Source of the DNA: Ignavibacteriota bacterium | GTDB lineage: Bacteria > Bacteroidota > Ignavibacteria > UBA10030 > UBA6906 | Reading direction: 5' to 3' | Assembly (NCBI GenBank): GCA_963801355.1 | Contig: CAWDEM010000008.1 | Location: forward strand, 576,001-640,000 | DNA length: 64,000 bases | Shown here: one piece after another, positions 36,985-54,671 of the stretch | How positions within the stretch are numbered: the stretch's first letter is position 1 | Layout: every line of letters begins with the position of its first letter | Made by a program: the position numbers and the translations under genes | Notes under the pieces: generated by a model | What the model was told of the DNA's origin: nothing | The model's database searches: none | What the model saw: only the letters and a program-made list of their open reading frames with translations

Positions 36985-37008
36985 CGGCCTCGTGGGCTCC
37001 GACTCTCT

Positions 37009-37599
37009 TCACTCGTTCCCCAACGTAGACACCCCACGGCTGAGCAACGGGTGAGAACGCGCTAGCCAGACAAGGCCAAGACCAGTCACAATACCGTACA
37101 CCAGAGAATCCAACCCATCACCAGCACGGAAACTAATCCAGGCCAGCCCGGTCAGCATCCATCCTGTCACGCTAAACAAGACCCACAGGCTTGCGAGTTT
37201 CATGTGCCGACGGAAAATCCACCATTGTGGCACACCCAGAAACAACCCAAATGTAACAACGGCCGACCAATATCCCGTCAGGTGCAAGCTCCAATGGAAC
37301 GCAATGTTGGCTTGGATGGTCTGTCCAAGTGGATAACCTGCCGCAAAGCCGACGGCGCTTGCTACAAGGAACCGTACAGGGAGCACACCAACGGTTCGAA
37401 CGATGGGCCATTGCAGGCCACCTATAACTGCACCCCAGACCAACCCCTTACCAATACGAGCCCATATCAATGGCTCGCCCCCCAACAGTCTGGCTGTCTC
37501 ACTGCCCAGTTCATAACCCAGGAACATCCCAGCCGAGGAGAGCAGAACGCCGATAAGCCCTGGTTTAATGTTAGTCCAAGTAAACAGTCGCGTTGTCAT
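37009..37599 (-). CDS. Hypothetical membrane protein
   Basis: Gly/Trp-rich multi-TM protein with internal repeat GGLQWPIVR / GVPQWWIFR. Confidence 0.7.
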   Translation of the reverse strand: MTTRLFTWTNIKPGLIGVLLSSAGMFLGYELGSETARLLGGEPLIWARIGKGLVWGAVIGGLQWPIVRTVGVLPVRFLVASAVGFAAGYPLGQTIQANIAFHWSLHLTGYWSAVVTFGLFLGVPQWWIFRRHMKLASLWVLFSVTGWMLTGLAWISFRAGDGLDSLVYGIVTGLGLVWLARSHPLLSRGVSTLGNE

Positions 37600-38003: not shown

Positions 38004-38066
38004 GAGGGAAAAGCTGGAAACTCAATCGACAATAGTCGATAGTCCATCGACTATTGTCCATCGTTT

Positions 38067-38200
38067 GTGCACCCACCAGGACTCGAATCCCGTCCCGACC
38101 GAAGTTAGCTAGGCGAAGCCGCAGCTAACTTCGTTGTCGGGACGCGGATCCTCGTCCCGCGCTGCGCGCGGGGCGGGACCTGGAACCCACTGATTAAGAG
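38067..38200 (-). repeat. tRNA-Lys 3' fragment (att remnant) interrupted by 91-bp insertion
   Basis: GTGCACCCACCAGGACTCGAA [38088-38178] CCTGGAACCCACTGATTAAGAG identical to the tRNA 3' half. Confidence 0.92.
38088..38178. mobile_element. 91-bp palindromic (REP/MITE-like) insertion, copy 1
   Basis: TCCCGTCCCG...CGGGGCGGGA termini, two internal hairpins; 90/91 identical to 52227-52317. Confidence 0.8.
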
Positions 38201-38291
38201 AGTCGAACGCTCTCGTCATTGTGAGTTGGGGCAAACTGCTTCTGCAATCGCTGTTGAATCGGGTGCGGACAACGAGCGACTGCGTTACTTC
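38198..38291. repeat. About 85-bp element-end repeat, copy 4 (abuts att remnant)
   Basis: Starts right after the tRNA fragment and ends at the stop codon of the T9SS gene. Confidence 0.85.
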
Positions 38292-39517
38292 AACAGAATG
38301 AGTTTTTTCGATTGAACGAAATCCCCCGCTGTCAGACGGTAGACGTACGCACCACTCGCAAGATTCGAACCATCGAACTTGACCTCGTGAACGCCAGCAT
38401 CTCTCCTCTCATTCACCAACGGGGATACCTCACGACCAAGCATGTCATGGAGACTCAGGCTGACATGCGATGTCTTGGACAAATCGAACTTGATGGTCGT
38501 TGTCGGATTGAATGGGTTTGGATAATTTTGTGAAAGCGAAGACTCTCCGGGCATTTCGTCGGTCTGCCCTGCATTGACAGACGTTGTTCCCCCGTTTGTG
38601 GTTCTGACGATTCTGCCGTTTTCAGCAACAGCGGTCCCGTTATTTGCATCGGTAAAGGAGATGTCAATCAAATGCTTTGTTGTTCCACTTGTTTGTTGTG
38701 TCCAGGTTATACCTCCGTCTGTAGTTCTGCGGATTCTGCCGTTCTCACCGACGGCAGTGCCGTTATTTGCATCGGTGAAGGAGACACTATATAGCTTGTT
38801 TGTTGCTCCACTTGTCTGTTGCGTCCAGGTTATTCCTCTGTCCGTGGTTCTGAGGATTATGCCGTTGTCACCAACAACAGTTCCGGTGTTTACATCGGTG
38901 AAGGAGACATCATACAAATCGTTTGCCGTTCCGCTTGATTGTGAAGTCCAGGTTGTTCCTCCGTCCGTGGTTCTCAGAATCGTACCCTCATAACCGACAG
39001 CCGTCCCGTTGTTCAAGTCAATAAAAGAGACTCCCTCCAGATATCGTGTTGTTCCGCTTGATTGTGAAGTCCATGTCGTTCCGCCGTTTGTGGTTCCGAC
39101 AATTCTGCCGTTTTCACCGACAGCCGTCCCATTGTCTGCATCGATGAAGGAGACGTCATACAGGTCGTTTGTTGTTCCACCCGATTGTCGAGTCCAGGTT
39201 GTTCCTCCGTTTGTGGTTCGGAGGATTCTGCCGTTCTCACCGACAGCCGTTCCGATGTTTACATCTCTAAAGGATACAGCCAGCAAAAAGTCTGATGTTC
39301 CGCTTGTCTGCTGTACCCAGGTTGTCCCCCCGTTTGTCGTCCTGAGGATTCTGCCGTTTTCACCGACAGCTGTTCCGTTGTTTACATCTGTAAAGGAGAC
39401 ACCGCCCAAATCTTCTGTTGTGCCGCTTGTTTGCTGATACCACTGCCCAAATGACGGGCATACGGAGAACACGAGCGGAACCACGACGAGGAATACACGC
39501 TTGAAGTTCCTTTTCAT
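38285..39517 (-). CDS. YCF48-repeat protein with T9SS C-terminal domain
   Basis: Seven 41-aa repeats VSF.D.N.GTAVGENGRI.RTT.GG.TW; QNYPNPFNP CTD. Confidence 0.9.
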   Translation of the reverse strand: MKRNFKRVFLVVVPLVFSVCPSFGQWYQQTSGTTEDLGGVSFTDVNNGTAVGENGRILRTTNGGTTWVQQTSGTSDFLLAVSFRDVNIGTAVGENGRILRTTNGGTTWTRQSGGTTNDLYDVSFIDADNGTAVGENGRIVGTTNGGTTWTSQSSGTTRYLEGVSFIDLNNGTAVGYEGTILRTTDGGTTWTSQSSGTANDLYDVSFTDVNTGTVVGDNGIILRTTDRGITWTQQTSGATNKLYSVSFTDANNGTAVGENGRIRRTTDGGITWTQQTSGTTKHLIDISFTDANNGTAVAENGRIVRTTNGGTTSVNAGQTDEMPGESSLSQNYPNPFNPTTTIKFDLSKTSHVSLSLHDMLGREVSPLVNERRDAGVHEVKFDGSNLASGAYVYRLTAGDFVQSKKLILLK

Positions 39518-39738
39518 GAGATGTCCCTTTCACCTATATACAGAGAAAAGCGACGCACGAGGGGACGTCGGCAGGTCGTCGGGTACAACGCAGGACGGAA
39601 CATTCGGCGGCACGCTGAGTCCCACTTTTGCTTGTTTCGGAAACCAAACGACTGGTTGTAGGTTGAGCATTGTAGTCCATCGTAGCTATGCCCGTGCCTT
39701 CGCGAGCACAGGCCTCACAACCAATGAACTACACTTGC

Positions 39739-40125
39739 TCAGAGAGCTTGCACACCAGGAGGACTTCGCTCGTGAACAAGCGAAAGAATACAGTTCGAAG
39801 GGAGTGAAACAACGTGGGGAATGTGAAAAGCACATAAACAGGTTCGAATGTCTAACGCAGGCTTGCAGGGGCACGCGGTCTCAACGGAAATCTTGCGCAC
39901 TCGGATGCGCTGGCAGAGGAAACTCTTCTTGCGTGGAGTGATCTGCTTCTGTTTGTGCGGGGGGCTCTTTTGCCTGGCGTGACTGTGGGGCTTCGATTCA
40001 CCGGCCAGCGTTACCGTGTGTGGGGGGGCTATCCGCGTTTGAGCATACAGACTCACACGCGGTGCAGAAAAGCCCAATGAAAACAGAAACACCAAAGGTA
40101 TGGAGAAGACTCTCTTCATGACCAA
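39739..40125 (-). CDS. Hypothetical protein (signal-peptide-like N-terminus; possibly degenerate)
   Basis: GAGG RBS upstream, MKRVFSIPLVFLFSLGF leader; remainder unrecognised. Confidence 0.35.
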   Translation of the reverse strand: MVMKRVFSIPLVFLFSLGFSAPRVSLYAQTRIAPPHTVTLAGESKPHSHARQKSPPHKQKQITPRKKSFLCQRIRVRKISVETACPCKPALDIRTCLCAFHIPHVVSLPSNCILSLVHERSPPGVQAL

Positions 40126-40384
40126 AATACTATCCTCGTACCTTTAGGAAGCGGCCACCACTAATGGATATCAACCCCATGTCATCCCCTGCTACAACAC
40201 CAACCGTCTCGAGGACCTCGCTGACGATACTTCAGCGCGAGCTGAACACAATGAACTTGAATCTTCTTGAGACCGGTGCCTGACGAAAGATGTCGGCCGG
40301 TCGTCGGGTTAGACGGTATCTCATAAACACTCGGCGACTCGCTGACTCCTACATCGAGTCGGAGCTCGTAATGTGTGTGACGGA

Positions 40385-40413
40385 AATGTACTCCCCCCCC
40401 TTTCCAAAGTCAA
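40385..40413 (-). promoter_or_regulatory. Sigma-70-type promoter facing cargo (Pc-like), copy 2
   Basis: TTGACT-N17-TACATT, divergent from the integrase. Confidence 0.65.
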
Positions 40414-40630
40414 ATGCACTCAAGAATCCCAAGGGTTTTCGGGGGTCTTTAGGAAGTGAGACCCTCGGAACTGCGTCAAGTCGGCTATCGGACAAAAGTA
40501 CCCCTCGGGACTGTGTTGCCCCTCACTCCCCGACCCCTTCCAGACATTGCCCCACTGATTCCAGTTGTGGCTCGACTGGATAGCCGATATGTTGTTCTCA
40601 GTGAATCGAGAACAATCAAGGGTACATCCG

Positions 40631-41662
40631 ATGTTGAACCACACCAAACTGTCTCTCTTCAAGCGTTCGAATGGAATATACTACCTGGGGTATGTCGAGG
40701 GGAATCGCAGACGGTGGAAGACAACCTCTTGCACCACCAAGTCGGATGCACTGCAGTTCCTGCGAACCTTCGAAGGAACCAAGAGAGAGATGGAACGCAC
40801 TCCCCTGCTCTCCGAACTCTTCACGCGGTTCGAGTCTACACGCGGTAACTCCATCCGTCCGTCAACGATGGACAATTACCGTCTTGCGGTCAACCGATTC
40901 AAAGAGGTCTGCGGAGACAAAGTCATTGACCAATACACCGTTTCAGATATCGAGACATTCAAGAACGCTCAGATTAGCCAGAAGGTGTCGAAGATATCCG
41001 TGAACATCTGGTTGCGTGGTGTCAAATCAGTTCTCGGTTTCGCAGTCAAGCACGAGTGGTTGACCAAGAACCCCGTGCAACGGTCACTTGAGTTTCCGAT
41101 TCCTCAACAGTCCCCAACCTATGTCACCAAAGAGGATTTCCAGAAACTCCTCGGTAAGGTACACGAATCCGTCCTCCGCGACCTCTTCCTTTTCGCCGCA
41201 CTCAGTGGTCTGCGTCTCTCAGAGATACTACACCTCAAGTGGAGTGCGGTGGACTTCGAGAAGAGACAGTTCACAGTATCCAACAGTGAGACCTTCACTA
41301 CGAAAACGGGAAGAGAACGGACGGTACCGATGCACGAGGAGGTGTACAAGGTTCTGTCACTGCGAAGGGGTAACAGTACGGAAGACGGTCTGGTGTTCTG
41401 CAAGAAAGGTGGATACCGCCTCGAACGGAACTATGTCTCGAAGAAGTTCAAGGGGTATGTTCGTGACGCGGAACTATCGGAGAAACTGCACTTCCACAGT
41501 TTGCGTCACAGTTGTGCGAGCTGGCTTGTTGATGCGGGCGTATCTCTGTATGTGGTGCAGAACATCCTGGGACACTCCAATATCAGTACGACCCAAATCT
41601 ACTCACACCTCTCACAGAACACACTGCACGAGAGTGTGAATCGGGTTGCACTCTGCGTTTGA
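40631..41662 (+). CDS. Tyrosine recombinase/integrase
   Basis: SGLRLSE (R), TKTG (K), HSLRH, LGH, TTQIY; short N-terminal arm-binding-like segment; no IntI-type insertion seen. Confidence 0.95.
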   Translation: MLNHTKLSLFKRSNGIYYLGYVEGNRRRWKTTSCTTKSDALQFLRTFEGTKREMERTPLLSELFTRFESTRGNSIRPSTMDNYRLAVNRFKEVCGDKVIDQYTVSDIETFKNAQISQKVSKISVNIWLRGVKSVLGFAVKHEWLTKNPVQRSLEFPIPQQSPTYVTKEDFQKLLGKVHESVLRDLFLFAALSGLRLSEILHLKWSAVDFEKRQFTVSNSETFTTKTGRERTVPMHEEVYKVLSLRRGNSTEDGLVFCKKGGYRLERNYVSKKFKGYVRDAELSEKLHFHSLRHSCASWLVDAGVSLYVVQNILGHSNISTTQIYSHLSQNTLHESVNRVALCV

Positions 41663-42622
41663 GCCTATTAGGGTAGGATTGGGAGGTATCGTTGTTGTTG
41701 GTGGGATTGGTGGTAAGGTGCCTCGTTCTGTTCGCTCCGTGTCTTCGACACTTCGCTCACCCCGACTGAGAAGCGTCGGGAATCACTCTCCGCTATTCTG
41801 AAGGATGAGGAAGTAGATTCAGAACGCTCTTTGTTCTGAGTCCGAAGGACAAATGCCTCAAGGAAGTCTTACCTCGCAAACAACGCTCGGTTGACCTCAC
41901 GAAGAACGTTCGGTCAATCTCTCTTCTTCCTTCTGTATGGAAATCACACTAAGTGAGGTAGTGAATACCGCGCTTTGTGCGGTGTGCGAACGTCTTCTGT
42001 TCGCACGATGTGTTCCTTACAAGACATAGTACGACTTGATGTCGTTTAGAAATCTGCGGTTGGTATGGTTAGCACTTTCGTTCTTACTAATGGACGCCTC
42101 GGACTCTCGTACCGAGGAACGTGTGTCTCTTCAGATTTGCCACACTTTGGTTTAGGACTTTTTCAAGGTCAATAGTGTGCGGACACAAGGACAGACTCCA
42201 CCAAGCGAGTTGCGACAATGGAGTGGTCGGTTGCGACAACTGGTTCCGTTCAACTTGTGTTCATCTCTTCAGTTCCTTTCCAAAACAAATCCCTCACTAC
42301 GAGTGTGTCTTCGCGGGCACTCATAATGAGGGAGTCAAACAAACCCTTCAGAGGGTTGTGTCGTACATTCATCTGTGCGAAGACATCTTCTCGTCTCTAC
42401 CTATACATATCATCGAGAAATCCCAAACGCTCACTTTTTCTGCACGACCGAGATAATATCTTCAATACGCCTATTGTGACACGGTCACAATCTGACCGCC
42501 TTAGGGGTGTCAAGGGTCGGATAAGTGGTCGGCTATCCACTTCCAGCAGTAAGCCTTGTCAACAGTGTCCGCTCGCCACTCTTGCCTTGCATCGCCTTGT
42601 CCGCTTCACTGGTGACTGTGAA

Positions 42623-42922
42623 TCACTGGACGATTGCCGAGTGCATCCAGACCCTCGCTTGTCCGTCCCACGGAATCGGAGATGGACTCACACTTCCGTC
42701 CACCGCCTCCGTTCGCCCCTTGACCGTGGAGAGGTGTGCCGCAATTCTGGGGTGTCCGAGGATGGTCTGAATACGAGAACCTCTCATATCGCAATCCCGT
42801 TCGATTGCGGAGATTGGTGTCAGAAATCCACGGACGCTTGAGGTTCCTACCGCATTTTGACAGACAAGCAGTGCATCGGGAACACCACCCCGCGTGTCAA
42901 GGTGCACTCCCGTGGTGTTCAT
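42623..42922 (-). CDS. Hypothetical protein, possibly the 5' part of a decayed gene
   Basis: Strong GAGGAGG RBS; downstream minus-strand frames look coding but contain stops. Confidence 0.35.
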   Translation of the reverse strand: MNTTGVHLDTRGGVPDALLVCQNAVGTSSVRGFLTPISAIERDCDMRGSRIQTILGHPRIAAHLSTVKGRTEAVDGSVSPSPIPWDGQARVWMHSAIVQ

Positions 42923-43103
42923 AATGCACCCTCCTCAACGCTTCGCCGACTGCCCCCATCCAGTTTGTCGTGAATGAAAAAACTGAACCTTCGTGCGATT
43001 GCTGAGGGAAGGTCTCTCGTATCGAGGTCGCCAGAATTGCCGCTGACGCATCTCCTCGGTTGCGAGATACTTATGGGAAACACACTCACCGTGAGGAACT
43101 GAA

Positions 43104-43418
43104 ATGCCGCAAGGAACGCAAGCCACATATGAGGAAATGCCATACGACCGACTCACACTCGTGGGGAAGGAATTGGGGGACTACAACTCGAAGGAATATA
43201 TCTATCGCGGTCAGTTGGGTGTGTACCGTCTGCGAGTGGGAGAATCCGTCACGGACGAAGGGAAGGTGTTCTACATCTACCAGAACAACAAGTTCTGGCT
43301 GAATCTGTATCCGTCAAACACCAAGAAGGTCTTCGTAGGAAGGGACGATGACGACTACTACATCTTCCGATTCGAGGGGAAGTATGTCTCGGTGTTCAAG
43401 CGGAAGTACGATATTTGA
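43104..43418 (+). CDS. Hypothetical protein
   Basis: GAGGA RBS, 104 aa, Tyr/Lys-rich beta-type composition. Confidence 0.65.
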   Translation: MPQGTQATYEEMPYDRLTLVGKELGDYNSKEYIYRGQLGVYRLRVGESVTDEGKVFYIYQNNKFWLNLYPSNTKKVFVGRDDDDYYIFRFEGKYVSVFKRKYDI

Positions 43419-43539
43419 CCGCTGACGATGGGGTGTCGAACTCAAAACAGAGTCCCGAAATTGTAGACAAGGCTGTTGACAAACTGGACGCAAAAGTAGG
43501 TCGGGATGTGGGGTGTGCGAGGGATGATAGCGAAGGGTC

Positions 43540-43573
43540 AAAAACACCGAACCCCTTCACACGGAAGGGGTTC
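43540..43573 (-). terminator. Intrinsic terminator downstream of tRNA 3' copy
   Basis: GAACCCCTTC-ACACG-GAAGGGGTTC 10-bp stem then GGTGTTTTT. Confidence 0.65.
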
Positions 43574-43578
43574 TGAGA

Positions 43579-43623
43579 GTGCACCCACCAGGACTCGAAC
43601 CTGGAACCCACTGATTAAGAGTC
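43579..43623 (-). repeat. tRNA-Lys 3' fragment (att remnant), uninterrupted
   Basis: 45 bp identical to 60509-60553. Confidence 0.95.
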
Positions 43624-43947
43624 CGGCAATGATCAGCCAAAACGTGCAAAATAGGGCACTTCTCGGCAGTTGGGTTGTCATAACTTGTCATAAACTGCCA
43701 TCGATTAGCATAAAGTCACTACACTTTCACTACACTCGTTGGGGACGGGGGCCGCCTTCGTCCATGAATATCTCAAGCTGTATTTGACATTGTCAAAAGA
43801 GCATTGTCATTGACGCTCACCGCACTCATCTGGGGCAGGCTTTAACCATGGTGGGATCCAGAATCGACCGCTCGCGGGGGAACAACCTGCGCCCGTTTGA
43901 TTCTGAGACTGCCCTGCGCTATCTTGTTGCATCAGAGAGGTTCACAC

Positions 43948-44253
43948 GTGACGCCAGCAATTCAAGTCAGCCGCAAACAAGTAGCCGAATTCTGTGCACG
44001 GCACAGGATCCGCCGGCTTGCGCTCTTTGGCTCCGTTCTGCGCGCGGATTTCCGCCCCGAGAGCGACGTCGATGTGCTTGTTGAGTTCGAACAGGGAGCT
44101 GCTGTTGGTTTTTTCGGGCTTGCCCGGCTTGAGCGTGAGCTATCCTCTCTTCTCGGAGGCCGGAGGGTCGACCTTCGCACACCGCAGGACCTCAGCAGAT
44201 ACTTCAGAGACTCCGTTGTCGATCAGTCCTACGTGATTCATGGACCAAGCTGA
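43948..44253 (+). CDS. MNT minimal nucleotidyltransferase antitoxin
   Basis: [22 protein letters not shown] (GSX10DXD); GTG start. Confidence 0.9.
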
Positions 44254-44593
44254 CCTGATCCGGCTCCGCCACATGCGAGACGCAGCGGCCGAGGCTCTCC
44301 AGTTTGCAGCGGGGAAGACGCGTGCCGATCTTGACCACGATCGCATGCTCATCCTGGCTATCCTGAAGGATCTCGAGATCATCGGAGAGGCGGCAGGCAG
44401 AGTAAGTCCCTCGGTCAAACAGGACAACCTGGCAGTTCCCTGGGAGGAGATCGTTGGGATGCGAAATCGACTCATCCACGGTTATTTCGATGTCAATCTG
44501 GACGTTGTGTGGGAAACAATCTCGCATGATCTTCCGCACCTCCTCATCGACATCGATACAATCCTGAGTCCACCGGAACAGTCTCAACAGTGA
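44240..44593 (+). CDS. HEPN (DUF86, HepT-like) ribonuclease toxin
   Basis: [22 protein letters not shown] (RX4HXY). Confidence 0.9.
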
Positions 44594-44658
44594 AGCCAAT
44601 GAGGTCCGGGGCATAGTTCGAGTTCGGACTTGGACAGTTGGGGCATCCTCCAATTGCG

Positions 44659-47526
44659 CTATTTCAAAAGAAGAAGCCGCCGCGTCTGTACAAAGTCCCC
44701 TGCCTGCATCCGGTAGAAGTACACTCCGCTTGCAAGCCCTGAACCGTCGAATTTCACTTCATGGTTCCCCGGTGCCATCTTCTCGTTCACCAGCACCGCC
44801 ACCTCTCGGCCCAGCAGATCATACACAACGAGTTTCACATTGCCGGCAGCTGGCAACTGATATCTGACGACTGTCGAAGGATTGAACGGGTTCGGGAAAT
44901 TTTGGCTAAGCCCATATACTTTGGGCACATCAGGGTTTTCGGTGACGCTCCCTGTCAGAGGAACGGCCAGAGCATTCTCGCACGCGCCAATATCCGGGTT
45001 TGAGCCCGCAGGGTTCGGACGCGCTGAGCCGTAGAAGCACGTGTTGGACGTTCGGTGCCACACGCCGCCAATCTTCAGAGAATCTATTCCGGCGCCAATG
45101 CAGGGGCTCCGTACGGAAAGGCGATAGGTGCTGTCTACGAACAGTGGTTCCTGTACAATATTTCCGGTGCCTGCGTATCCCCCTGCAACATCGCAATATT
45201 GAATGACCGGCGCCGCCCCGGTTGCATTGATCTCGGGCCCGGTCGTAGCAGTATCTCCCCAGAGAATATTGTTGAACGCAACAACGTTTGCAGCGTTAAC
45301 GATATCCAGCCCACCGCCAGTTGTTGCCTTGTTCCCCACAAAAGTATTGTTCGCGATCATCTGCTCCGTTCCCACATCAGGAGCATTCTGAACCTGCAGC
45401 CCTCCGCCAGATGTAGTCGACTGGTTTTCCGTTATGATGTTGTTTTCGATCTGGAATGAAGATCTGATCGCTTGAATCCCCCCTCCTCTCGCATCGTTTG
45501 AGCCCGCCGCAGTGTTTGCAGATATCAGATTCCCTGTAACCGTCGCCACTGTGTGGAACAGATCGATGGCACCTCCCCAGTTCTCCACGTTCTGACCTTG
45601 AACGTGGTTCCCGACGAACTGATTATGTGTGAGCCACTTGCGCCCAGGTCCCACGGCCTCTCTGTCGTCAATGCATATGCCTCCCCCTATGGCCCAACCA
45701 TTGAGCACTGCGGTCGCAATGTTTCCTTCGAAGGTGTTCTCGGTGAACACGACGGGTCCCGTCGAGTAGCAGAAAACCCCTGCACCAGTTGCAGCACCAT
45801 CTCCTCCTGAAGGTATTCCGTTCGCAATGTTGTTCCGGAAGATGTTCCCCTGAACAAATCCTTCGGGGAACGGCGCAGAGGTAGTCAATCCATACAGATT
45901 CAACCCACCTCCAATCGCAATGGAGACTCCAATGGCAGTATCCCTTTCAATCACATTGCCAACAACCCGAAAGGACATGCCGTTGACATCAACTCCCCCA
46001 CCCGTTCCCCACGTATTGCCCGAAGTTCCCAGCACATAGTTGTCTGTGATTCGGTTATCTTCGAGCACGAGCCACAATGGCGTAGCGCCAAAGCTAACTG
46101 TTCCCACTCCTCCGCCGCCGGATGCCCCGCCAATTACTCTGTTGAGGACGATGTTGTTGCTTACGAGCTTGGCTCCCGCAGAATCGCAAAACACCCCTCC
46201 GCCCTCGCGCCACGTTGTACCATCCGGACCAAAATATGATGTTCCCGTTCCACCGGTAATTGTGAAACCGCACAGGACCGACGTTGTGTCTTCATTGTCG
46301 GCAAAGCAGACCACCGATCCCCCATTCGGATCTGTCGCGTGGCTCCCGTCGATAATTGTTTTCGCAATGTGCGATGTGTCGCCTGTTGTGAGATACGTGC
46401 TGGCGACAACGATGCTCTTCCCTTTGAATCGTATGTTCTCGTAGTAGGTGCCGTCAGAAACGAGCACAGTGTCGCCATTGTGGGCGGAGTCAATCGCGGC
46501 CTGGATTGTCGCATAGTTCTGTGGAACGAGACGACGGCTTCCGGCGACTGGCGACGTTGCATGGCCTATCCGGATGAGATATGTGCTTGCAGGTGACCTC
46601 CAACCATCGTACCAGAAATGGATCGCGTCTCCCCGCAAGAGTACGGCATCCACCATCGCAGCGGTGGCATCCCACCCTCCGGGGGTAGTGTTAAGTACAG
46701 GATTCGCAGGGTGTTTAACCCACGGGGAATTCCCGTCTAGGGAGGTGGCCAAACCAGACCTGGAGTTACCGCTCGAGTACCACATGTAGTACGAGTTTTT
46801 AATCAAGACGACTTTCGGGCCTGCAACTCCTCCTGCATCCCATTCCCCTGGTTTGCCAGCATCGAGCATCGGGTTGTTTGCTGCATCCCGCGTCCAGTGG
46901 ATTCCATCTGGAGATGTCGCAAGTCCGATCTTCGTAGCACTCAGGTCCGCATTGTAGCCATAGTACCACATCCTGTAGCCCGTCGGGCTGATCCGCATGA
47001 CGGTCCCAACGTCAGGGCCGCCAACTTCCCATGCCGCAGTTCCTTGTCCGAAGACGGGGTTGCCTGGATACTTTGTCCATTGAATGCCATCCGGTGAAGT
47101 AGCGTAGCCAAGATCTGCGGTATCTCCTTTCCATGAGCCATACCACATCTTGTAGGATCCATTCTCACGCAGGACTATGTGGGAAGAAATCGAGGCATCG
47201 TCCCAGCTGCCAGGGGTTCGTGACATGACCGGAGATGAATACGAGGTCCAATTCACTCCATCGGGTGATTTAGCGAACCCGACTTGCCAGGGGTGGCCGT
47301 AGTTTTCAAGGCTGGGCGTCGCCGCAAACCACATTTCATACCTCGAAGAGTCTTCATTGTAGATCACACATGCATTGAAAACATGTTTGTTCCACGTGCC
47401 CTCGCTTCCACCGGACAAGACCGGGTTTCGGGAATCCTTCGTTATCGTGAATTGCCCGAATGCGCTGCCATTTCCGAAGAACAGAATGGCCACAAGTGAA
47501 ATGCTGCAAACCATTGCGTTTCTCAT
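44659..47526 (-). CDS. Secreted protein: five-bladed glycosidase-like propeller + parallel beta-helix + T9SS domain
   Basis: Five NPV...WD...YxMWY...G.A.S.DG..W repeats; VPQNYATIQAAID..GDTVLV..GTYYENI; QNFPNPFNP. Confidence 0.82.
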   Translation of the reverse strand: MRNAMVCSISLVAILFFGNGSAFGQFTITKDSRNPVLSGGSEGTWNKHVFNACVIYNEDSSRYEMWFAATPSLENYGHPWQVGFAKSPDGVNWTSYSSPVMSRTPGSWDDASISSHIVLRENGSYKMWYGSWKGDTADLGYATSPDGIQWTKYPGNPVFGQGTAAWEVGGPDVGTVMRISPTGYRMWYYGYNADLSATKIGLATSPDGIHWTRDAANNPMLDAGKPGEWDAGGVAGPKVVLIKNSYYMWYSSGNSRSGLATSLDGNSPWVKHPANPVLNTTPGGWDATAAMVDAVLLRGDAIHFWYDGWRSPASTYLIRIGHATSPVAGSRRLVPQNYATIQAAIDSAHNGDTVLVSDGTYYENIRFKGKSIVVASTYLTTGDTSHIAKTIIDGSHATDPNGGSVVCFADNEDTTSVLCGFTITGGTGTSYFGPDGTTWREGGGVFCDSAGAKLVSNNIVLNRVIGGASGGGGVGTVSFGATPLWLVLEDNRITDNYVLGTSGNTWGTGGGVDVNGMSFRVVGNVIERDTAIGVSIAIGGGLNLYGLTTSAPFPEGFVQGNIFRNNIANGIPSGGDGAATGAGVFCYSTGPVVFTENTFEGNIATAVLNGWAIGGGICIDDREAVGPGRKWLTHNQFVGNHVQGQNVENWGGAIDLFHTVATVTGNLISANTAAGSNDARGGGIQAIRSSFQIENNIITENQSTTSGGGLQVQNAPDVGTEQMIANNTFVGNKATTGGGLDIVNAANVVAFNNILWGDTATTGPEINATGAAPVIQYCDVAGGYAGTGNIVQEPLFVDSTYRLSVRSPCIGAGIDSLKIGGVWHRTSNTCFYGSARPNPAGSNPDIGACENALAVPLTGSVTENPDVPKVYGLSQNFPNPFNPSTVVRYQLPAAGNVKLVVYDLLGREVAVLVNEKMAPGNHEVKFDGSGLASGVYFYRMQAGDFVQTRRLLLLK

Positions 47527-47592
47527 GGGTCCCTCCATTGTTGGTTGTTCGCCGGAATATAGAAAGGCTGGAGGGGGATGTGGTAGGAATGC

Positions 47593-47620
47593 TTAGACAA
47601 AGAATGCGAGAATCTGGACA
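47593..47620 (-). promoter_or_regulatory. Candidate HTCS/AraC site: direct repeat at 21-bp spacing
   Basis: TTAGACA...CTGGACA, upstream of a TATATT -10-like box. Confidence 0.4.
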
Positions 47621-47669
47621 TCAGACAGGAATACGCTCGTTCGTCCCGAGAGAGGCCATAGTAGGCTCT

Positions 47670-50600
47670 TCAGAGGGCGATCTGGTGGACCTCGGAGGGC
47701 AAAATCCCGAACCGTTCGTGGAAACAAGAACTGAAGTACGAGGGATCGCCAAAGCCGACCTGAAAAGCGATCTCAGCCACAGTCGCGGCATTCTTCTCAA
47801 GAAGCTCGCGCGCACGCTGGAGACGTAAGTACTTGATCAGTTCGGCAGTCGAGAGATTGGTCAGCCCCATCAGCTTGCGGTCGAGATGTCTGCGGCTGAG
47901 GGCAACCTCGCGGGCGATCTCTGCGGCACCGAGGGTTTCGTCACTCATCCGTTCCTCTATCGCAGTCATGACTCGCTTCAGCAACGCGTCATCGAGAGAG
48001 GAGACCACCACTTCTCCAGGCTTCAGGACAACACCCGCCGAGAATTTCGCCCGAAGCTGCCGCCGTTGCTCGATCAGGTTCCGCACACGAGCCAGCAATT
48101 CCTTTGAGTCAAACGGCTTTGTCACATAGTCATCGGCGCCAATATCCAGCCCTTCTATCTTGCTGTCGGTGCCCGCCCGCGCGGTGAGTAGGATCACCGG
48201 GACGTGGCTGGTGCGCACATCCTTCTTCAAGGCACGGCAGAGTTCCATACCATCCATTTCGGGCATCATCACGTCGCTGATCACAATGTCCGGCACGATC
48301 TCCAATGCCCGATCATATCCTTCCTTGCCGTTTCCTCCTTCCTGCACTTCATAGTCGGATTGCAGAAATTCGCGAATATATGTCCTGAGGTCGGCATTGT
48401 CCTCCACAACGAGCACGATCGGTTTCCCATCGGTTGGTGGTATGGGTGGAACAGGACTGGACGCAACCGCAGAGACTCCAAATCCTACGCGTTCTCTTAT
48501 CTCGACTTCAGGCGGAGACGCGGCAGTCTCCTCAGGCTTGTATGCTGACCTGTCAGTGGAAAGGGTCACCGTGAATACCGATCCCTTCCCGGGTGTACTC
48601 TCGACTGCGATCGTCCCGTGGTGAAGGTCGACAAGCTCCTTTGTCAGCGCCAAGCCGATCCCCGTGCCTTCGGTTGTGTGTGTCTCGTCGGCACGGTAGA
48701 AGCGTTCGAAGATGTGGGGAAGATGCTTTGGCGAAATGCCGGGACCGGTGTCGGAAACCCTCAACCCCCATGCCCCTCTCCCATTTGGGGAGAGGGGGAG
48801 CGAGGGGGTGAGGGTAACCGTCACGCTTCCTCCTTCCCCCGTAAACTTCACCGCATTCGACATCAGGTTGTTCAGAATCTTCTCCAGTTTGTCCCCGTCG
48901 AAGAAGCCAACGGCAGTGTTGGCACCAGGGTGGAACTCCAGCGAGATCTTCTTCCTCTCCGCCCACGACTCAAATGACATCACCGTACGGCGGACGAACT
49001 GCACAATATCGGACTTCGACACCTGCAGCTTCATCATCCCGGATTCAATACGAGAGAAGTCCAGCAACTGACCGACCAACGTAAGGAGCTTCTTGGCGTT
49101 GTCCCGTATGAGTTTGAACTTCTCTGGTGTGGACGGATCTCCGTTCGCCTCAATACCCTGTTCTGCCGGTCCCAGAATGAGCGTCAGTGGCGTTCGAAAC
49201 TCGTGTGAGATATTGGCAAAAAAACGAGACTTGAGGCGATCCACTTCTGCGAGGCGTTCTCTCTGGAAGTGCTCCATCTTCGCCGTCTGCTGCAAGCGTA
49301 TCTGGCGAATCCGGAGCCGATATGCTCCAAGGAGTGCTCCAACAAAGAGTGATGCATACATGGCATATGCCCACATCGTCTGCCACCACGGGGGTGAAAT
49401 GACTATAGCGACTGACGTGCCGGTTTCATTCCATAGCCCTTCGTTGTTCGATCCCTTCACCTTAAAGACATAGTCACCCGGGTTCAGATTGGGATACGAA
49501 GCATAACGCCGTGTCCCGGAATAGACCCAATCTTCATCCACTCCCTCCATCTTGTAGGCATACTGGTTCCTTTCCCCGTTCAGGTAGCTCAACGCGGCAA
49601 ACTCGAAGGATATGAAGTTGTCATCATGAGCCAGACGAACCTCATTGGACAACGGACAAGGTTTGTCGAACTTCCTAAAGGAGGTTACTACGACAGGAGG
49701 GACGTACAGATTGTCTTCTATGCTGTCGGGATGAAAACGCGTCAGGCCGTTTGCACCCGCGAAAAATATCTCGCCGTCTCCGGTTTTGCACCCCGAACTG
49801 TTTACTTTGTCTGACGGCAAGTCCAAACCATACGAGACATCATAAAACCTGAAGCGACCTGTTTCGGGATCGTATTTTGCCATCCCCTTACTCGTGTTGA
49901 GCCACAGAGAGCCGTGATTATCCTCCTGTATGCCGCGCATGCTGCTACTCGGCAGGCCACACCTTTCGGTGATGTCACTGAAATCTTCTGTCGATCGCTC
50001 ATATCTGAAGAGACCGGCCCAGGATGCAAACCACAATCTGCCCTTGTTGTCCTCACGCATCTGATAGACCGTATTCGAATTATTGCGTCCTGGGCTTTGG
50101 TGTTTCTTGTCGGTAACATGTTCGGAAAGAGTACCTTTTGCATGATCATAGCAGAACAGTCCACCCCAGCCAGGGGCAACCCAGAGGAGGCCGAAGCTAT
50201 CTTCGAACATATACATAATTTCTTTTCTCAGGTTCGCAACTTCCGTAACCCGTTGTGTCGTTGGGTCAAGCAGATAGAGACCGCCTGTGGCGGTTCCGGC
50301 GTAGTAACCTCTGTCGGTCTTCTGGACACAGGAGAGAGAGTGATTGAAGGCCTTCCAGGAGGGACCGAGGGAAAACGTTCTGTTGCCAAGTGTATCTCGG
50401 ATGTAAAAGCTCCCATCTATTGTTCGAAATGCCAAATCGCCTTCCGGGCAAACGAAGCACAGGAGGTCGGTTCCAGAGGAGTATGGAACAAACTGCCCTA
50501 TCCGCGGGTCAAATTGAAGCCATCCTCGTTCGTTGAAGGCATACACCCATATCTTCCCCTCGTTCCCTTTCACAAGGTTAAGGGCGACTCCCCCCATGGG

Positions 50601-51689
50601 GTAGGTTTTGAACGGCGGTTTCGTTCGGTTGAGCTTTTTGAGTTCAGTATCTGTTCCGACCCATAGTGTTCCGGATCGCTCCCGATAGACAGAGAGTATT
50701 CCCTCATCAAGCAGGCTGCTGAATTTCTTAGATCTCGTGTCAAACGATAGAAGCCCCTTGGGGGATCCGATCCAAAGAATACCGGATACAACATCCTGGC
50801 AAACTGAGGTGAGCAGATTCTCTGGATGCTGCAAATTCAAGGGATCTCCTGATTGATAGCGGTAGACTTTGGACGTACCTTTCCTAGTGTTGCACTCAAC
50901 CAATCCCCCGTTCGTCCCCAGCCAGAGTATGCCGGCGTCATCACCACAGATTGTGTTGACAAAGCATTCTGAAGTGTTGACGAAGTGTACTTCAGGGCTT
51001 GTCGGCATCGAAGTGTGCCTGGTGCCCGGTTCACTCCAGTAGCGTCTGAACTTACCAGTCTCGAAATCATATTTCGTCAATCCTGTCGCAGTGCCGATCC
51101 AGAGCGATCCCTCCTTGTCTTCATACATTGCCTCGATCGGAACACTGCCAAGATCAGTGCTATCAAGTCCCAGGTACGTGTATTCTTCTCTCACCCTGTC
51201 AAACCTGCGAAGGCCAGCGGCTGTGCCAATCCATAGGGCGCCGTCTTTGCCCTCACAGATGTGGTAGACGCGGTTGCATACGTCAACTACTGCATAGGCG
51301 GATGGATTCGGAGGGTAGTGTTTGAATGTGACGGATGCCCGGTCGAATCTCTCAAGTCCCATCGTGATACCAACCCAAAGAACGCCGGATTCATCTTCAA
51401 AGAGCGTGAGCACTGTGTTGCAATTGATGCTGGATGTATCGGCAAGGTCATTCTTGTACGAAATGAAACCGTACCCATCGTACCTGTAGAGCCCATCCGC
51501 AGTGCCTATCCATAGGAAGCCCGTTCTGTCCTGAAGAATACATGAAGCTTGCGCGAGGACACTTTGATCAGGCGAGAGAGTTACGAAAGCAGCCTTCTGT
51601 GGCTGAGAGCGAAGAGAAGCCGGGAGACCAACAACAAATACCAAGAGGAATAGGAAGAGTCTTTTCACTGCAGAAACGGGACCAGGCAT
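47670..51689 (-). CDS. Hybrid two-component system (propeller sensor-Y_Y_Y-HisKA-HATPase-REC-AraC)
   Basis: LWIGT..GL repeats, NISHEFRTPL, SNAVKFT, GTGIGLAL, DVMMP, IAFQVGFGDPSYFS. Confidence 0.95.
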   Translation of the reverse strand: MPGPVSAVKRLFLFLLVFVVGLPASLRSQPQKAAFVTLSPDQSVLAQASCILQDRTGFLWIGTADGLYRYDGYGFISYKNDLADTSSINCNTVLTLFEDESGVLWVGITMGLERFDRASVTFKHYPPNPSAYAVVDVCNRVYHICEGKDGALWIGTAAGLRRFDRVREEYTYLGLDSTDLGSVPIEAMYEDKEGSLWIGTATGLTKYDFETGKFRRYWSEPGTRHTSMPTSPEVHFVNTSECFVNTICGDDAGILWLGTNGGLVECNTRKGTSKVYRYQSGDPLNLQHPENLLTSVCQDVVSGILWIGSPKGLLSFDTRSKKFSSLLDEGILSVYRERSGTLWVGTDTELKKLNRTKPPFKTYPMGGVALNLVKGNEGKIWVYAFNERGWLQFDPRIGQFVPYSSGTDLLCFVCPEGDLAFRTIDGSFYIRDTLGNRTFSLGPSWKAFNHSLSCVQKTDRGYYAGTATGGLYLLDPTTQRVTEVANLRKEIMYMFEDSFGLLWVAPGWGGLFCYDHAKGTLSEHVTDKKHQSPGRNNSNTVYQMREDNKGRLWFASWAGLFRYERSTEDFSDITERCGLPSSSMRGIQEDNHGSLWLNTSKGMAKYDPETGRFRFYDVSYGLDLPSDKVNSSGCKTGDGEIFFAGANGLTRFHPDSIEDNLYVPPVVVTSFRKFDKPCPLSNEVRLAHDDNFISFEFAALSYLNGERNQYAYKMEGVDEDWVYSGTRRYASYPNLNPGDYVFKVKGSNNEGLWNETGTSVAIVISPPWWQTMWAYAMYASLFVGALLGAYRLRIRQIRLQQTAKMEHFQRERLAEVDRLKSRFFANISHEFRTPLTLILGPAEQGIEANGDPSTPEKFKLIRDNAKKLLTLVGQLLDFSRIESGMMKLQVSKSDIVQFVRRTVMSFESWAERKKISLEFHPGANTAVGFFDGDKLEKILNNLMSNAVKFTGEGGSVTVTLTPSLPLSPNGRGAWGLRVSDTGPGISPKHLPHIFERFYRADETHTTEGTGIGLALTKELVDLHHGTIAVESTPGKGSVFTVTLSTDRSAYKPEETAASPPEVEIRERVGFGVSAVASSPVPPIPPTDGKPIVLVVEDNADLRTYIREFLQSDYEVQEGGNGKEGYDRALEIVPDIVISDVMMPEMDGMELCRALKKDVRTSHVPVILLTARAGTDSKIEGLDIGADDYVTKPFDSKELLARVRNLIEQRRQLRAKFSAGVVLKPGEVVVSSLDDALLKRVMTAIEERMSDETLGAAEIAREVALSRRHLDRKLMGLTNLSTAELIKYLRLQRARELLEKNAATVAEIAFQVGFGDPSYFSSCFHERFGILPSEVHQIAL

Positions 51690-52168
51690 GAGTTCAGTCT
51701 CCTCTTTGCGCGCATCGGCGAACAGTCTGGCGGCTATTGGCCTCAGAGGTCTTGTTCCGGAGAATCCTGGGGAGTCAGATCTTGCGTTCGACGGGAGAGT
51801 GCGAATGCAATCAAAGTTCAGGTGCGCTTCCAGATCTGACGCGGGGACCCCGACCACCGCATTCGACCTATGTAAGCTCACTGCGAATATACAAACTGGA
51901 TCGTCGAAAGTCTGTAGGAAGAATGCTGATTCTTCGTGTAGGAAAACTCTTACGCACAGGAATTCTTGCGGCGCCTTCGGGCGGGAATTGCGTGAGGTTT
52001 CGAACCTCCGAACCACTGATTATTTTTGCTGCAATGCGGGCTGAAAACGCCGCGTGGATACATCTTTGGGGGTGGAAAGTGGCCGAACCAAACTGCAATC
52101 GCAAATCACAGATTACTACACTTTCACTACACTCGATCAAAAACCGGTTATCACCCCTCCCCCACAAC

Positions 52169-52204
52169 AAAAAAACCCCGAATGCGCTTCACATTCAGGG
52201 TTTT
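52169..52204 (-). terminator. Intrinsic terminator downstream of tRNA 3' copy
   Basis: AAAACCCCGAATG/CATTCAGGGTTTT stem with A7 on plus (U-tract on minus). Confidence 0.7.
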
Positions 52205-52205
52205 C

Positions 52206-52344
52206 GTGCACCCACCAGGACTCGAATCCCGTCCCGACCGAAGTTAGCTAGGCGAAGCCGCAGCTAACTTCGGTGTCGGGACGCGGATCCTCGTCCCGCG
52301 CTGCGCGCGGGGCGGGACCTGGAACCCACTGATTAAGAGTCAGT
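52206..52344 (-). repeat. tRNA-Lys 3' fragment (att remnant) interrupted by 91-bp insertion
   Basis: GTGCACCCACCAGGACTCGAA [52227-52317] CCTGGAACCCACTGATTAAGAGTCAGT. Confidence 0.92.
52227..52317. mobile_element. 91-bp palindromic (REP/MITE-like) insertion, copy 2
   Basis: Same sequence (1 mismatch) and same position as 38088-38178. Confidence 0.8.
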
Positions 52345-52586
52345 CCATAACGACTCAATACGCACAAAACAGGATCCTTTTCTTCAGTCGAGTTGCTATA
52401 AACTGCCATAGATTGTCACAGATTACCATAGTTTCACTACAATTTCACTACACTCCTTCGGGGCGTTCATCCCCGCTTTTGTAAGTATCCACGGAACGGC
52501 GGCTCGTTATGTCTCGGTCACACCGCGCTAGAAAGAGAGGGCGGACGGCCCTGTCTGCCCTTGCGCAAGCAGGACACCTCGCGAGT

Positions 52587-54671
52587 TTATTTCAAAAGCA
52601 AGAGTCGGCGCGTCTGCACAAAGTCTCCTGCCTGCATTTGGTAGAGGTATACGCCACTCGACAGCCCTGAACCGTCGAACCTTACTTCATAGTTCCCCGG
52701 TTCCTTCTTCTCTTTCACGAGCAGGGCCACCTCGCGGCCAAGCATATCATGGACAACGAGCCTTACCGGACTCGTCACTGGCAACTGGTAACTGATCGTC
52801 GTGACTGGATTGAAAGGATTTGGATAATTCTGTTCGAGAACAAATGCACCTGGTTGCGCTGCCGGCTGGCCGTCGACACTCACTGTTGGATCATATGTTA
52901 CACTACCCACCTTGCAGAGCAACCATCCCTTCGGATCCACAGCGATCGAGTCTACGATTCTTGAAGTTGCGATCCGAAATGTGTCGGTCAGACTACTCTG
53001 GAACACCCGGACAGTAGTATCTGCGCCTGCATATGTCAGCTTGAACTCCAGAGAGGTCTGAAAGAGCGGCGTTACCAACGGCATCGAGGGGGACTGCGTT
53101 GATACGATCTTCACCCCTCCTGATTCTCTGGTCCAACGGAGGGTGAAGGTGGGATATCCTTCCCCATAATACCACTGGGAGAAGAACGCAGTGAAATCTC
53201 TTCCTGTTTGCCGTTGAAGAAAATCTTTGAATATCTCTCCGGTGACGGCGCGACCAGCAAACTCCGCGAGGTACTCTTTCAAGAGCCGGAAGAATAGTGA
53301 ATCGCTCCCCAGTTCAAACCGGAGCATGTGGAGAATTGTGGCTCCCTTATAATACGTCAGACGATTATCCAAAACCCGCGCTTCGTTGTACCTGTCAGCG
53401 GGGGGAATGTAGACGCTTCCACCCGGAAGCGACATCACCAACGCTCTGCTCAACGTCATATTGCGTCGGCCTACCGACTCAGGAAGAAAATGCTCCATCG
53501 CAATCTGCTCTGCATAGGTCGCGAACCCTTCCGCGAGCCATAGATCGCATTCTGTCAATGGACCAACTGTTGAGCCGAACCATGAATGACTCAACTCATG
53601 GGGAACGAAGTATGCAAGATAGCGTCCCCCGTAGTCCACCACTGCGGTGTCGAGCCGGAGTTCAGAAAAGAGTGAGAGCCCAAGGACGTACATTGCGCCG
53701 CCGGTCCAATCGGTGGTCACGAAATGGTGCTCATTTCGCCAGAAGGGGATGACGCCAAAGTGAGAAGTGAAATATGCAAGATATTCCTTCGATTTCTCCA
53801 TGACGGCGATCTGCTTGCTCAAGTACGGGCTTGCCGGGAAAAAGAAGCCACGGATGACCATCGAATCGCTGACGGCGGGTTGATAGAAACTGGTTCTGTA
53901 TTCCGCGTACGGTCCCACCACAAACGTGATGTCAGTCGGAGGGAGGGGCCACCGGCTGGAGAATTCCCATCGGGTTTTTCCGGCATCCGCAGGCAAGGTC
54001 CGGATCAACGCTCCTGTCGCCACGACCTTGTTCGCCGGATCGGTCGTGATGGCGATATCCACAGAATCTGCCCAATCTTCAAGCATATCCTTGCAGGGGA
54101 ACAAGTAGGATGCGTAAATTGGCCATATATAGGAGTATATGAATGTCATGCCGTACTTATATCCACGAACCAATCCTACCCCTGCGTTGGCATCGTCACC
54201 ATGATAAAAGACCCGTGAAGCAAATGAGCTGCCACCCGGAATCGGAGGATTCAATGGGATCTGAATGAGGTTGTTTTGATGGACGAAAGATCGCCAGGTT
54301 CCATCGACAATGACTGAATCAGTGATCATGGTTGCGCCGCCGGCCGTGTTGATCAGTGCGATGACGAGAGTGTCAATTGGTGTGCCACCCACCGAAGCTC
54401 TCATCGTTGTGTTCCCTCCGAACGCTGTAGCGGCGGTGGAGATGTTGAGATCCAACCCATAATATTTCACATCGTAGAGCAAGAGTTTATCGCGCATTGC
54501 AGAGGTGGTGGCATTGAGGGAAGCGGCCGAACTGGCAACAACACTTTTCGGTATCGCTCTCTCTTCATATATATTTCTTTGGCCAAAAGCACACGCCGAA
54601 TTGATCAGGAGCATTGCAGGAACAAATCCGAGAATGCTCAGCATACGTTGGCCCCGTTTCATAGACCACAC
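52587..54671 (-). CDS. M1 family aminopeptidase with T9SS C-terminal domain
   Basis: HELSH...WLAEGFATY (HEXXH-X18-E), YYKGA..LHMLR; QNYPNPFNP. Confidence 0.9.
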   Translation of the reverse strand: MWSMKRGQRMLSILGFVPAMLLINSACAFGQRNIYEERAIPKSVVASSAASLNATTSAMRDKLLLYDVKYYGLDLNISTAATAFGGNTTMRASVGGTPIDTLVIALINTAGGATMITDSVIVDGTWRSFVHQNNLIQIPLNPPIPGGSSFASRVFYHGDDANAGVGLVRGYKYGMTFIYSYIWPIYASYLFPCKDMLEDWADSVDIAITTDPANKVVATGALIRTLPADAGKTRWEFSSRWPLPPTDITFVVGPYAEYRTSFYQPAVSDSMVIRGFFFPASPYLSKQIAVMEKSKEYLAYFTSHFGVIPFWRNEHHFVTTDWTGGAMYVLGLSLFSELRLDTAVVDYGGRYLAYFVPHELSHSWFGSTVGPLTECDLWLAEGFATYAEQIAMEHFLPESVGRRNMTLSRALVMSLPGGSVYIPPADRYNEARVLDNRLTYYKGATILHMLRFELGSDSLFFRLLKEYLAEFAGRAVTGEIFKDFLQRQTGRDFTAFFSQWYYGEGYPTFTLRWTRESGGVKIVSTQSPSMPLVTPLFQTSLEFKLTYAGADTTVRVFQSSLTDTFRIATSRIVDSIAVDPKGWLLCKVGSVTYDPTVSVDGQPAAQPGAFVLEQNYPNPFNPVTTISYQLPVTSPVRLVVHDMLGREVALLVKEKKEPGNYEVRFDGSGLSSGVYLYQMQAGDFVQTRRLLLLK

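Follow-up and report, generated by a model that had tools for sequence, protein, structure and literature searches.

Genomic islands classically integrate at tRNA genes, and the pieces of tRNA that remain afterwards are usually seen as inert scars. In fungal mitochondria there are mobile GC-rich double-hairpin elements, and mobile endonuclease open reading frames (ORFs) that supply a gene end anew while the old one stays in place. In bacteria, folded DNA serves as a recombination substrate for integron integrases (attC hairpins) and for XerCD (phage DNA). The system closest to the one described here is that of the Ssn nucleases, single-domain GIY-YIG enzymes of ~90 amino acids which, according to the main text of their description, cut single-stranded DNA beside their own hairpin, NTS/SRM (Chenal et al. 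2025, PMC11893778). Here we describe a 91-bp twin-hairpin element that occurs twice in a stretch of 64,000 nucleotides from an Ignavibacteriota bacterium (GenBank assembly GCA_963801355.1, contig CAWDEM010000008.1, positions 576,001 to 640,000 of the forward strand; hereafter the window), each time within a leftover piece of a tRNA-Lys gene. As with the Ssn repeats of that main text, its family consists of short hairpin repeats linked to small GIY-YIG genes, and the basal stem of one hairpin variant (CATTCCGAC...GTCGGAATG) resembles by eye the NTS core as given there.

Results

Alignment and BLAST of the window place the 91-bp element at 38088-38178 (copy 1) and 52227-52317 (copy 2), both on the plus strand and 99% identical; shuffled windows contain no match to it. 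The sole difference between the copies, T at 38134 and G at 52273, falls in an unpaired 2-nt bulge of the longer of two hairpins. On the plus strand both copies are flanked by ...GTGCACCCACCAGGACTCGAA on the left and CCTGGAACCCACTGATTAAGAG... on the right. Read on the minus strand, which is the tRNA-sense strand, the split is CCAGG^TTCGAGTCCTGG and lies between nucleotides 53 and 54 (G53^T54). Neither copy shows a target duplication, and the insert boundary is ambiguous by a single nucleotide (A). When folded as single-stranded DNA, the insert forms two hairpins that extend to both of its ends, a long hairpin B of 61 nt (38088-38148 and 52227-52287) and a short hairpin A of 30 nt (38149-38178 and 52288-52317), with folding energies of -40.5 kcal/mol (z = -8.7) for the plus strand and -38.8 kcal/mol (z = -7.9) for the minus strand. 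Each hairpin opens with TCC(N)CGTCCC and closes with GGGACG(N)GGA, so that the A-B junction is itself a palindrome around GGATCC. An initial annotation, made from the sequence alone, had described one insert shared by two tRNA remnants with one mismatch, a split at the T-stem/T-loop junction without clear target duplication, a double hairpin framed by TCC...GGA, and a functional tRNA and a copy at 43579 that lack the insert; all of this is confirmed.

The hosts of the insert are parts of a tRNA-Lys array. ARAGORN predicts one tRNA gene in the window, tRNA-Lys(CTT) at 60509-60582 on the minus strand, which is uninterrupted and served as the target for integration of the islands. Exact repeats of its last 21 bases are found at 38067, 43579 and 52206, so that four exact copies of the 21-mer are present including the tRNA. 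Two of the three 3' remnants are split by the insert; the third and the intact gene are empty. Remnant att1 (38067-38200, minus strand), the distal end of island C, holds nucleotides 54 to the 3' end at 38067-38087 and approximately nucleotides 32-53 at 38179-38200 on either side of copy 1, and its two parts are identical to the tRNA at 23/23 and 21/21 bases. Remnant att3 (52206-52344, minus strand), split by copy 2, marks the distal end of island A and borders directly on the start of island B; here 52317-52344 equals 60529-60556 and 52204-52226 equals 60507-60529. The uninterrupted remnant att2 (43579-43623, minus strand), an empty site at the distal end of island B, matches tRNA-Lys from the anticodon loop to the 3' end at 45/45 bases. 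Such repeats of the tRNA 3' end are the signature of three islands accreted there. Where the insert is present, it cuts the 45-bp tRNA repeat into 21 and 22-23 bp, and one half of the T-arm symmetry is lost.

Is the insert peculiar to this array? Plain BLAST with the 91 bp detects only three copies in the source genome (G000; other G numbers denote relatives, C contigs and L loci) and copies in 16 of the 68 genomes of the bacterial family, so a covariance model was needed for the remaining members. This model, R1, was built from 10 copies, in which 17 of the 35 pairs are already compensatory. It scores copy 1 at 104.6 bits on the plus strand versus 37.1 on the minus strand, and copy 2 at 103.7; the modelled strand, the one with the best covariance score, is in both window copies antisense to the tRNA. 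The BLAST search added to the window pair one copy, 79% identical, beside tRNA-fMet, and R1 raised the strong copies in G000 to four with a match at C4:522476-522566, in a tRNA-Pro-like remnant; about 4-6 copies are carried in all. R1 matches occur in 37 of the 68 family genomes and in 10 of the 151 genomes sampled evenly across the phylum, all ten from the same order. In the alignment of 101 matches (81 distinct), which was fitted to R1 itself and thus somewhat favors structure, 96.5% of cells are paired and double changes occur at 31 of the 35 pairs; none of 500 shuffles matched the observed pairing and covariation, and slid controls were 27-47% paired. The initial claim of a non-coding, structured, repeated element is supported. 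The pair cells comprise 2409 Watson-Crick, 49 G.T and 23 A.C combinations, the Watson-Crick share being ~95% (2409/2547). Given that pairing is almost purely Watson-Crick and that both strands fold, the element is most likely a DNA palindrome that acts as DNA rather than a structured RNA. A scan of the region against Rfam, with E up to 10, gave no family, the sole overlap being a microRNA model at 13.9 bits against a threshold of 70.

The positions of the copies were surveyed by comparing the 13 bases on the hairpin-B side with all predicted tRNA genes of the relatives' loci and of G000, which gave 83 distinct flank pairs. A piece of a tRNA gene lies on that side in 52 of them. The commonest junction is a tRNA 3' fragment cut exactly at G53^T54 (18/83); a further seven 3' fragments are joined in the variable arm or anticodon loop, 16 flanks are tRNA 5' fragments ending at nucleotides 15-35 (D loop, D stem, anticodon loop), eight lie directly behind the complete 3' end of tRNA-Glu(CTC), and three are other tRNA matches, two of them repeats of the same elements on the reverse strand. 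Relative to the tRNA, T-loop copies have the modelled strand in antisense and D-loop copies in sense. Inspection by eye of the 31 pairs without a tRNA match under the 13-base rule reveals several T-arm-like sites of the tRNA-fMet-side lineage, nine copies in G049 and G046 that are lodged in the loop of another repeat hairpin and separate small gene cassettes, two at the start of an mnmA-type gene, including one directly behind a duplicate of the first codons, and several ordinary intergenic copies in a sister family. Thus, the proposal that the element targets T arms is not supported in its simple form: copies in 3' fragments are overwhelmingly at the T-stem/T-loop junction, but the family also occupies D loops, anticodon loops, variable arms, the DNA behind the tRNA-Glu 3' end, other repeat hairpins and the mnmA-type 5' end. 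The junction bases have no sequence in common. In G000, each of the four strong copies occupies an NG^TTCRA site within a tRNA-like 3' fragment, and the 47 intact tRNA genes are free of them, in agreement with the suggestion that the element survives in dispensable copies only.

Several of these sites have further features. In G049 (L073, C30:7000-12500) and G046 (L080, C9:223000-229500), gene cassettes of ~0.9-2 kb form arrays in which each cassette is followed by a twin hairpin, lodged in the loop of a second repeat hairpin of the form CGCGGC...GCCGCG. Pfam matches in these cassettes include an MNT-type nucleotidyltransferase, a BrnA/CopG-type antitoxin and a protein with a type IX secretion system (T9SS) sorting tail; the layout is integron-like. 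At L042 (G063, C316) the element occupies 1501-1584, between a duplicate of the first ~13 codons of the mnmA-type tRNA-modification gene (PF03054, 228 bits) and the intact gene itself, an ORF at 371-1474 on the minus strand, indicating that the end-duplication design is not limited to tRNA genes. At tRNA-Val of L046 (G008, C13:15243-18332) and at tRNA-Pro of L011 (G049, C43), a GIY-YIG cassette at the 5' end is combined with a hairpin-bearing 3' remnant just behind the same tRNA. Further small hairpins are frequent in remnants, either within the T loop or replacing the anticodon arm.

Comparison of orthologous remnants within the genus reveals filled and empty sites that differ by a clean insertion of 91 bp. 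The junction with the start flank of island B is filled in G000 (att3) and empty in G030; in G028 it has no counterpart, as this flank abuts an intact tRNA-Lys. The junction with the end flank of island B is empty in G000 (att2) and in G030, whereas G028 carries a copy there with 80-82% identity. G030 has no filled tRNA-Lys remnant among its three, and in G029 the end of island A bears a related, partly degenerate hairpin. Because orthologous remnants are filled in one sister genome and empty in another, the element is gained or lost at given remnants independently of the islands. For the tRNA-fMet-side copy no clean empty orthologue was found within the genus, only repeated flanks. The nearest relative of each copy usually has the same tRNA type in its flanks, and pairs of 99-100% identity occur only with homologous flanks: the window copies, two copies in G045 (C1), and tandem arrays. 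As near-identical copies are confined to homologous flanks, one window copy probably arose from the other via the homologous tRNA flanks, by conversion or by recombination between att repeats, and a fresh site-specific jump is the less likely source of the second copy. Spread by gene conversion, which had been offered as an alternative to targeting, therefore best fits the window pair.

In relatives and elsewhere in G000, the family is linked to small GIY-YIG nuclease genes. At C4:442361-442796 of G000, a twin hairpin interrupts the D loop of a tRNA-Pro(TGG) 5' fragment and is followed by an 87-aa GIY-YIG ORF (442478-442738; Pfam, 63 bits) that runs into the intact tRNA. R1 scores this twin hairpin, upstream of the GIY-YIG gene, at 31.9 bits, assigning it to the same family as the window insert. 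The nearest solved relatives of the 87-aa protein in PDB are UPF0213 proteins. Family members just upstream of small GIY-YIG ORFs were found in G000 (C4), G024, G045, G051 and G049, and in these 5' cassettes the modelled strand is the sense strand. Tandem arrays are also formed. In G024 at least six units of 412 bp each contain tRNA-Pro nucleotides 1-22, the hairpins, a tRNA piece and the GIY-YIG ORF; G045 and G051 have units of 347 and 355 bp with the ORF, and ORF-less units of 183, 192 and 229 bp end in an intact tRNA-Pro. G050 has a 100-bp array of nucleotides 45-53, hairpins and nucleotides 54-76 behind an intact tRNA, and 212-bp units lie behind tRNA-Glu. Across the 68 family genomes, 26 have both the hairpin and a homologue of the GIY-YIG query, 11 the hairpin only, 15 the nuclease only and 16 neither. 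The small single-domain GIY-YIG nuclease is the best candidate for installing the module. The surroundings of tRNA-Pro(TGG) in G000 (C4:442361-522600) possibly form a long island array: the GIY-YIG cassette at the 5' end of the tRNA is accompanied by a recombinase gene immediately downstream, and the fourth twin hairpin resides in one of the tRNA-Pro-like 3' remnants found ~80 kb away.

The window islands themselves differ in content. Island C (38201-43578) contains the only tyrosine recombinase gene of the array, at 40565-41662 on the plus strand (Phage_integrase, 134.6 bits); the closest NCBIfam models are of XerC, XerD and XerA types, every one below its cut-off. Island B (43624-52205) and its paralogue island A (52345-60508) lack an integrase, and their ends resemble each other. 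Both encode a hybrid two-component regulator; island B also encodes a protein with a T9SS tail, and island A has a HepT/MNT toxin-antitoxin pair (59391-60022) as well as an M1 peptidase that carries a T9SS sorting tail. On both sides, the att copies of islands A and B are bordered by short direct repeats of the type CACTACACTTTCACTACACTC (43640-43745, 52100-52156, 52390-52465, 60342-60395), likely arm-type sites for a recombinase whose gene has been lost from the array. A 37-bp imperfect palindrome (caatcgacaatagtcgat...) at 38025-38061 and 60466-60503 adjoins the 3' ends of att1 and of the intact tRNA-Lys, and may be a terminator or a recombinase-binding site. A further repeat of 80-230 bp, with 76-92% identity, lies beside genes for T9SS-tailed proteins at 32696-32791, 36456-36538, 36820-37046 and 38195-38292, the last copy beginning right at the inner edge of att1. 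Internal tandem repeats in a ~120-bp register (67-78% identity) occupy 34267-35814 and 38583-39441, within the genes for two secreted BNR/sortilin-type propeller proteins. None of the window genes close to the two copies encodes a nuclease or transposase, so the co-occurring enzyme that the initial annotation had suggested looking for is not found there; a weak GIY-YIG-like match at 13499-13786 reaches 18 bits, with no Pfam match at E 0.001.

Discussion

The window insert belongs to a family of twin-hairpin DNA modules spread through one bacterial order, and we lean slightly towards the view that these are selfish or non-autonomous modules that lodge in gene fragments. On this account the non-coding module would work at the level of DNA and would insert precisely, without target duplication, into redundant gene fragments. 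Its preferred hosts would be the tRNA gene fragments left beside intact tRNAs by integrating islands or by small end-replacing cassettes, and within 3' fragments its preferred junction would be G53^T54. In the window, an ancestral copy in one tRNA-Lys remnant would recently have been copied into the second, probably via the shared 21-23-bp tRNA flanks. A predicted side effect is that splitting the att repeat and breaking the T-arm symmetry should hinder island deletion or excision. A number of observations weigh against this account. Polarity, as judged by eye, is fixed in 16 loci, the long hairpin facing the displaced end piece and the short hairpin the intact gene, with the tRNA-Glu lineage (5 loci) as the exception. 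Several loci have the remnant 0-31 nt behind an intact tRNA, with no island between. Presence and absence at orthologous remnants could reflect loss rather than gain, the junction bases of the 83 flank pairs share no consensus and leave the choice of site unexplained, and 21-23 bp of shared flank is at the lower limit for RecA-type conversion. The association with the nuclease across the 68 genomes is weak. With the query used, 11 of the 37 hairpin-positive genomes have no GIY-YIG homologue, among them the same-genus genomes G027, G028 and G030, which carry T-loop copies, and no nuclease or transposase gene lies near the window copies.

Fixed polarity and island-free spacing fit at least as well with a different role, in which the twin hairpin would act in cis as the outer end of a mobile cassette; such a cassette would enter the loop of a tRNA gene and re-supply the gene end that it cuts off. 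We regard this role as unlikely, though worth serious attention. A 3' type of cassette would comprise nucleotides 54-76, a trailer or cargo, the older tRNA piece and the hairpins; a 5' type would comprise the hairpins, a tRNA piece, the GIY-YIG ORF and nucleotides 1-16/22. Repeated entry would produce the tandem arrays, and the window islands would be versions with long cargo. In accordance, polarity is fixed in both the 5' and the 3' types, the array periods (100, 183, 192, 212, 229, 347, 355 and 412 bp) each contain one hairpin pair and one tRNA piece with the intact tRNA at the end of the array, some remnants follow intact tRNAs with no intervening island, and the same design recurs at the 5' end of the mnmA-type gene. 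Four loci in G045 and G030 (L029, L039, L075, L006) have, moreover, remnants whose T-stem halves pair with each other and differ from the T arm of the adjacent intact tRNA, the acceptor 3' strand being identical. This swap resembles a newly installed gene end that pushed out the old one, or else a foreign hairpin fragment recombined in via the acceptor strand; as the data fit either alternative, the cassette role retains a substantial minority share of our belief. Nevertheless, the same island end occurs with and without hairpins inside one genus, several hairpins are nested within one remnant, sister-family copies sit in ordinary intergenic DNA, and unequal crossing-over can also grow arrays. 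In the window, furthermore, the piece before the hairpins is a full 22-nt fragment from anticodon to T stem, a typical integrase att repeat. Were the cassette role correct, hairpin-ended cassettes for gene-end replacement would constitute an undescribed class of bacterial mobile DNA, which would enter, as DNA, the loops of tRNA genes and of some protein genes and would depend on a very small GIY-YIG nuclease that is hairpin-specific and works on single-stranded DNA, a proposal that we put forward only tentatively. Such machinery would also shape or freeze island arrays at tRNA genes; the fresh gene end would account for the swapped T arms, and the cassettes would pile up in tandem.

A role tied to the islands themselves appears improbable to us. 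Here the hairpins would be part of the islands' recombination site, a folded arm or core for a Xer-like recombinase, and would move only with the islands. Hairpins do lie in the distal att repeats of both the tRNA-Lys and the tRNA-Pro arrays, the only recombinase of the tRNA-Lys array is closest to XerC/XerD/XerA and integron-type models, the related, partly degenerate hairpin at the island A end is also present in G029, and hairpins separate the gene cassettes of G049 and G046. However, G028 has a filled island B end where G000 and G030 have an empty one, all three remnants of G030 are empty, and most relatives' copies have no recombinase homologue within flanks of ~1.5 kb, the only tblastn match to the window's recombinase lying beside tRNA-Pro of G000. 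An integron attC site was considered and rejected, as the RYYYAAC/GTTRRRY core sites are absent at the hairpin feet and the recombinase scores 81 bits against an integron-integrase cut-off of 265. We consider it still less probable that the insert is an RNA element, be it intron-like, a small RNA or a terminator in a transcript of the tRNA region. Covariation is strong, G.T cells exceed A.C cells 2:1 on the modelled strand, and that strand is sense upstream of the GIY-YIG ORF in 5' cassettes; yet the choice of strand by R1 may bias the G.T count, the strand is antisense in T-loop copies and sense in D-loop copies, the excess of Watson-Crick cells is that of DNA palindromes, and the hairpins are followed by no T run and match no Rfam family. 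A tRNA intron was rejected because the window hosts begin only at the anticodon loop, the 5' half of the tRNA being absent; ARAGORN with introns allowed reported only the tRNA-fMet next to the third copy. Finally, that one copy stems from collapsed or mis-joined repeats in the assembly, which the initial annotation had named as a possible refutation, seems very improbable. The two copies with their tRNA-derived flanks are indeed 98.5% identical over 137 bp, but the flanks beyond the tRNA bases differ, the single difference between the copies is internal, the same filled layout is found on contigs of other genomes of the genus (L007, L014), and the assembly comprises 8 contigs with 100% completeness. 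Among public reads, no run contained half or more of the sampled words of the stretch, the best fraction being 0.20, and the contigs assembled from such reads derive from relatives. One run contains a joint that skips the 91 bp; it was rejected as a sign of excision, having 20 bases on its shorter side and fitting the intact tRNA-Lys or an empty remnant of another organism.

What would such modules mean for island biology? The tRNA scars examined here are the preferred home of a conserved structured DNA element, which in addition accompanies minimal nuclease genes and forms arrays in tandem. Should it move by a hairpin-guided mechanism, it would represent a new and very small type of bacterial mobile DNA, and it would be a natural substrate for the recently described GIY-YIG nucleases specific for single strands. 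If splitting of att stops excision, the element would explain how islands become fixed. For annotation, the inserts mask tRNA fragments and att repeats from island-finding software.

We found in print no description of a palindromic repeat family inside tRNA gene leftovers beside intact tRNAs and islands. Full-text literature searches yielded neither hairpin elements in bacterial tRNA gene fragments nor GIY-YIG cassettes at bacterial tRNA genes, although the supplements of the Ssn paper may list loci near tRNAs. Unlike the Ssn repeats as they are presented in the main text of PMC11893778, where the word 'tRNA' is absent, the present elements number about 4-6 in G000 rather than hundreds and lie inside tRNA gene fragments. 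The published SRM search pattern matches none of the 101 aligned copies on either strand, and its 52 matches in the 4.8-Mb genome are at chance level, with 11 in the first Mb versus 7-15 in five shuffles. The Ssn nucleases are of family cd10448; for the local GIY-YIG protein, the Pfam GIY-YIG match is 63 bits and the nearest PDB entry is UPF0213. The window copies also differ from the 5' GIY-YIG cassettes of their own family, in that they occupy 3' fragments at G53^T54, at the ends of kilobase-sized islands and away from any nuclease gene.

Among other hairpin-based DNA, the REP/BIME repeats with RAYT and the miniatures of IS200/IS605 are likewise small palindromic extragenic repeats without target duplication, and the IS200/IS605 likeness extends to the clean 91-bp insert with hairpins at both ends. 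Both differ in copy number, which is low here. IS200/IS605 differs moreover in that no conserved 4-5-nt target lies beside the left end of the present element, where the bases vary (GAA, AGC, TAG, CAG, TAC, TTG, CTT, AAG, TCA). A Y1 transposase or RAYT as mobilizer was rejected: the single Y1_Tnp gene (C8:1730724) is flanked by unrelated inverted repeats, and the best R1 score in its ~3.3-kb locus is 7.7 bits. The border repeats that arise by tandem accretion of islands at tRNA 3' ends are matched by the hosts, four exact tRNA-Lys 3' copies that bound three islands, one with a tyrosine recombinase; it is the host of the insert, and not the insert, that has the properties of an island att repeat. 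A conserved structured element in the middle of the repeat is not part of the known border model, and a term search of PMC9897764, a paper on tRNA gene fragments, found none. The double hairpins of fungal mitochondria are set apart by description, the present family residing in a bacterial chromosome and having tRNA genes as its targets.

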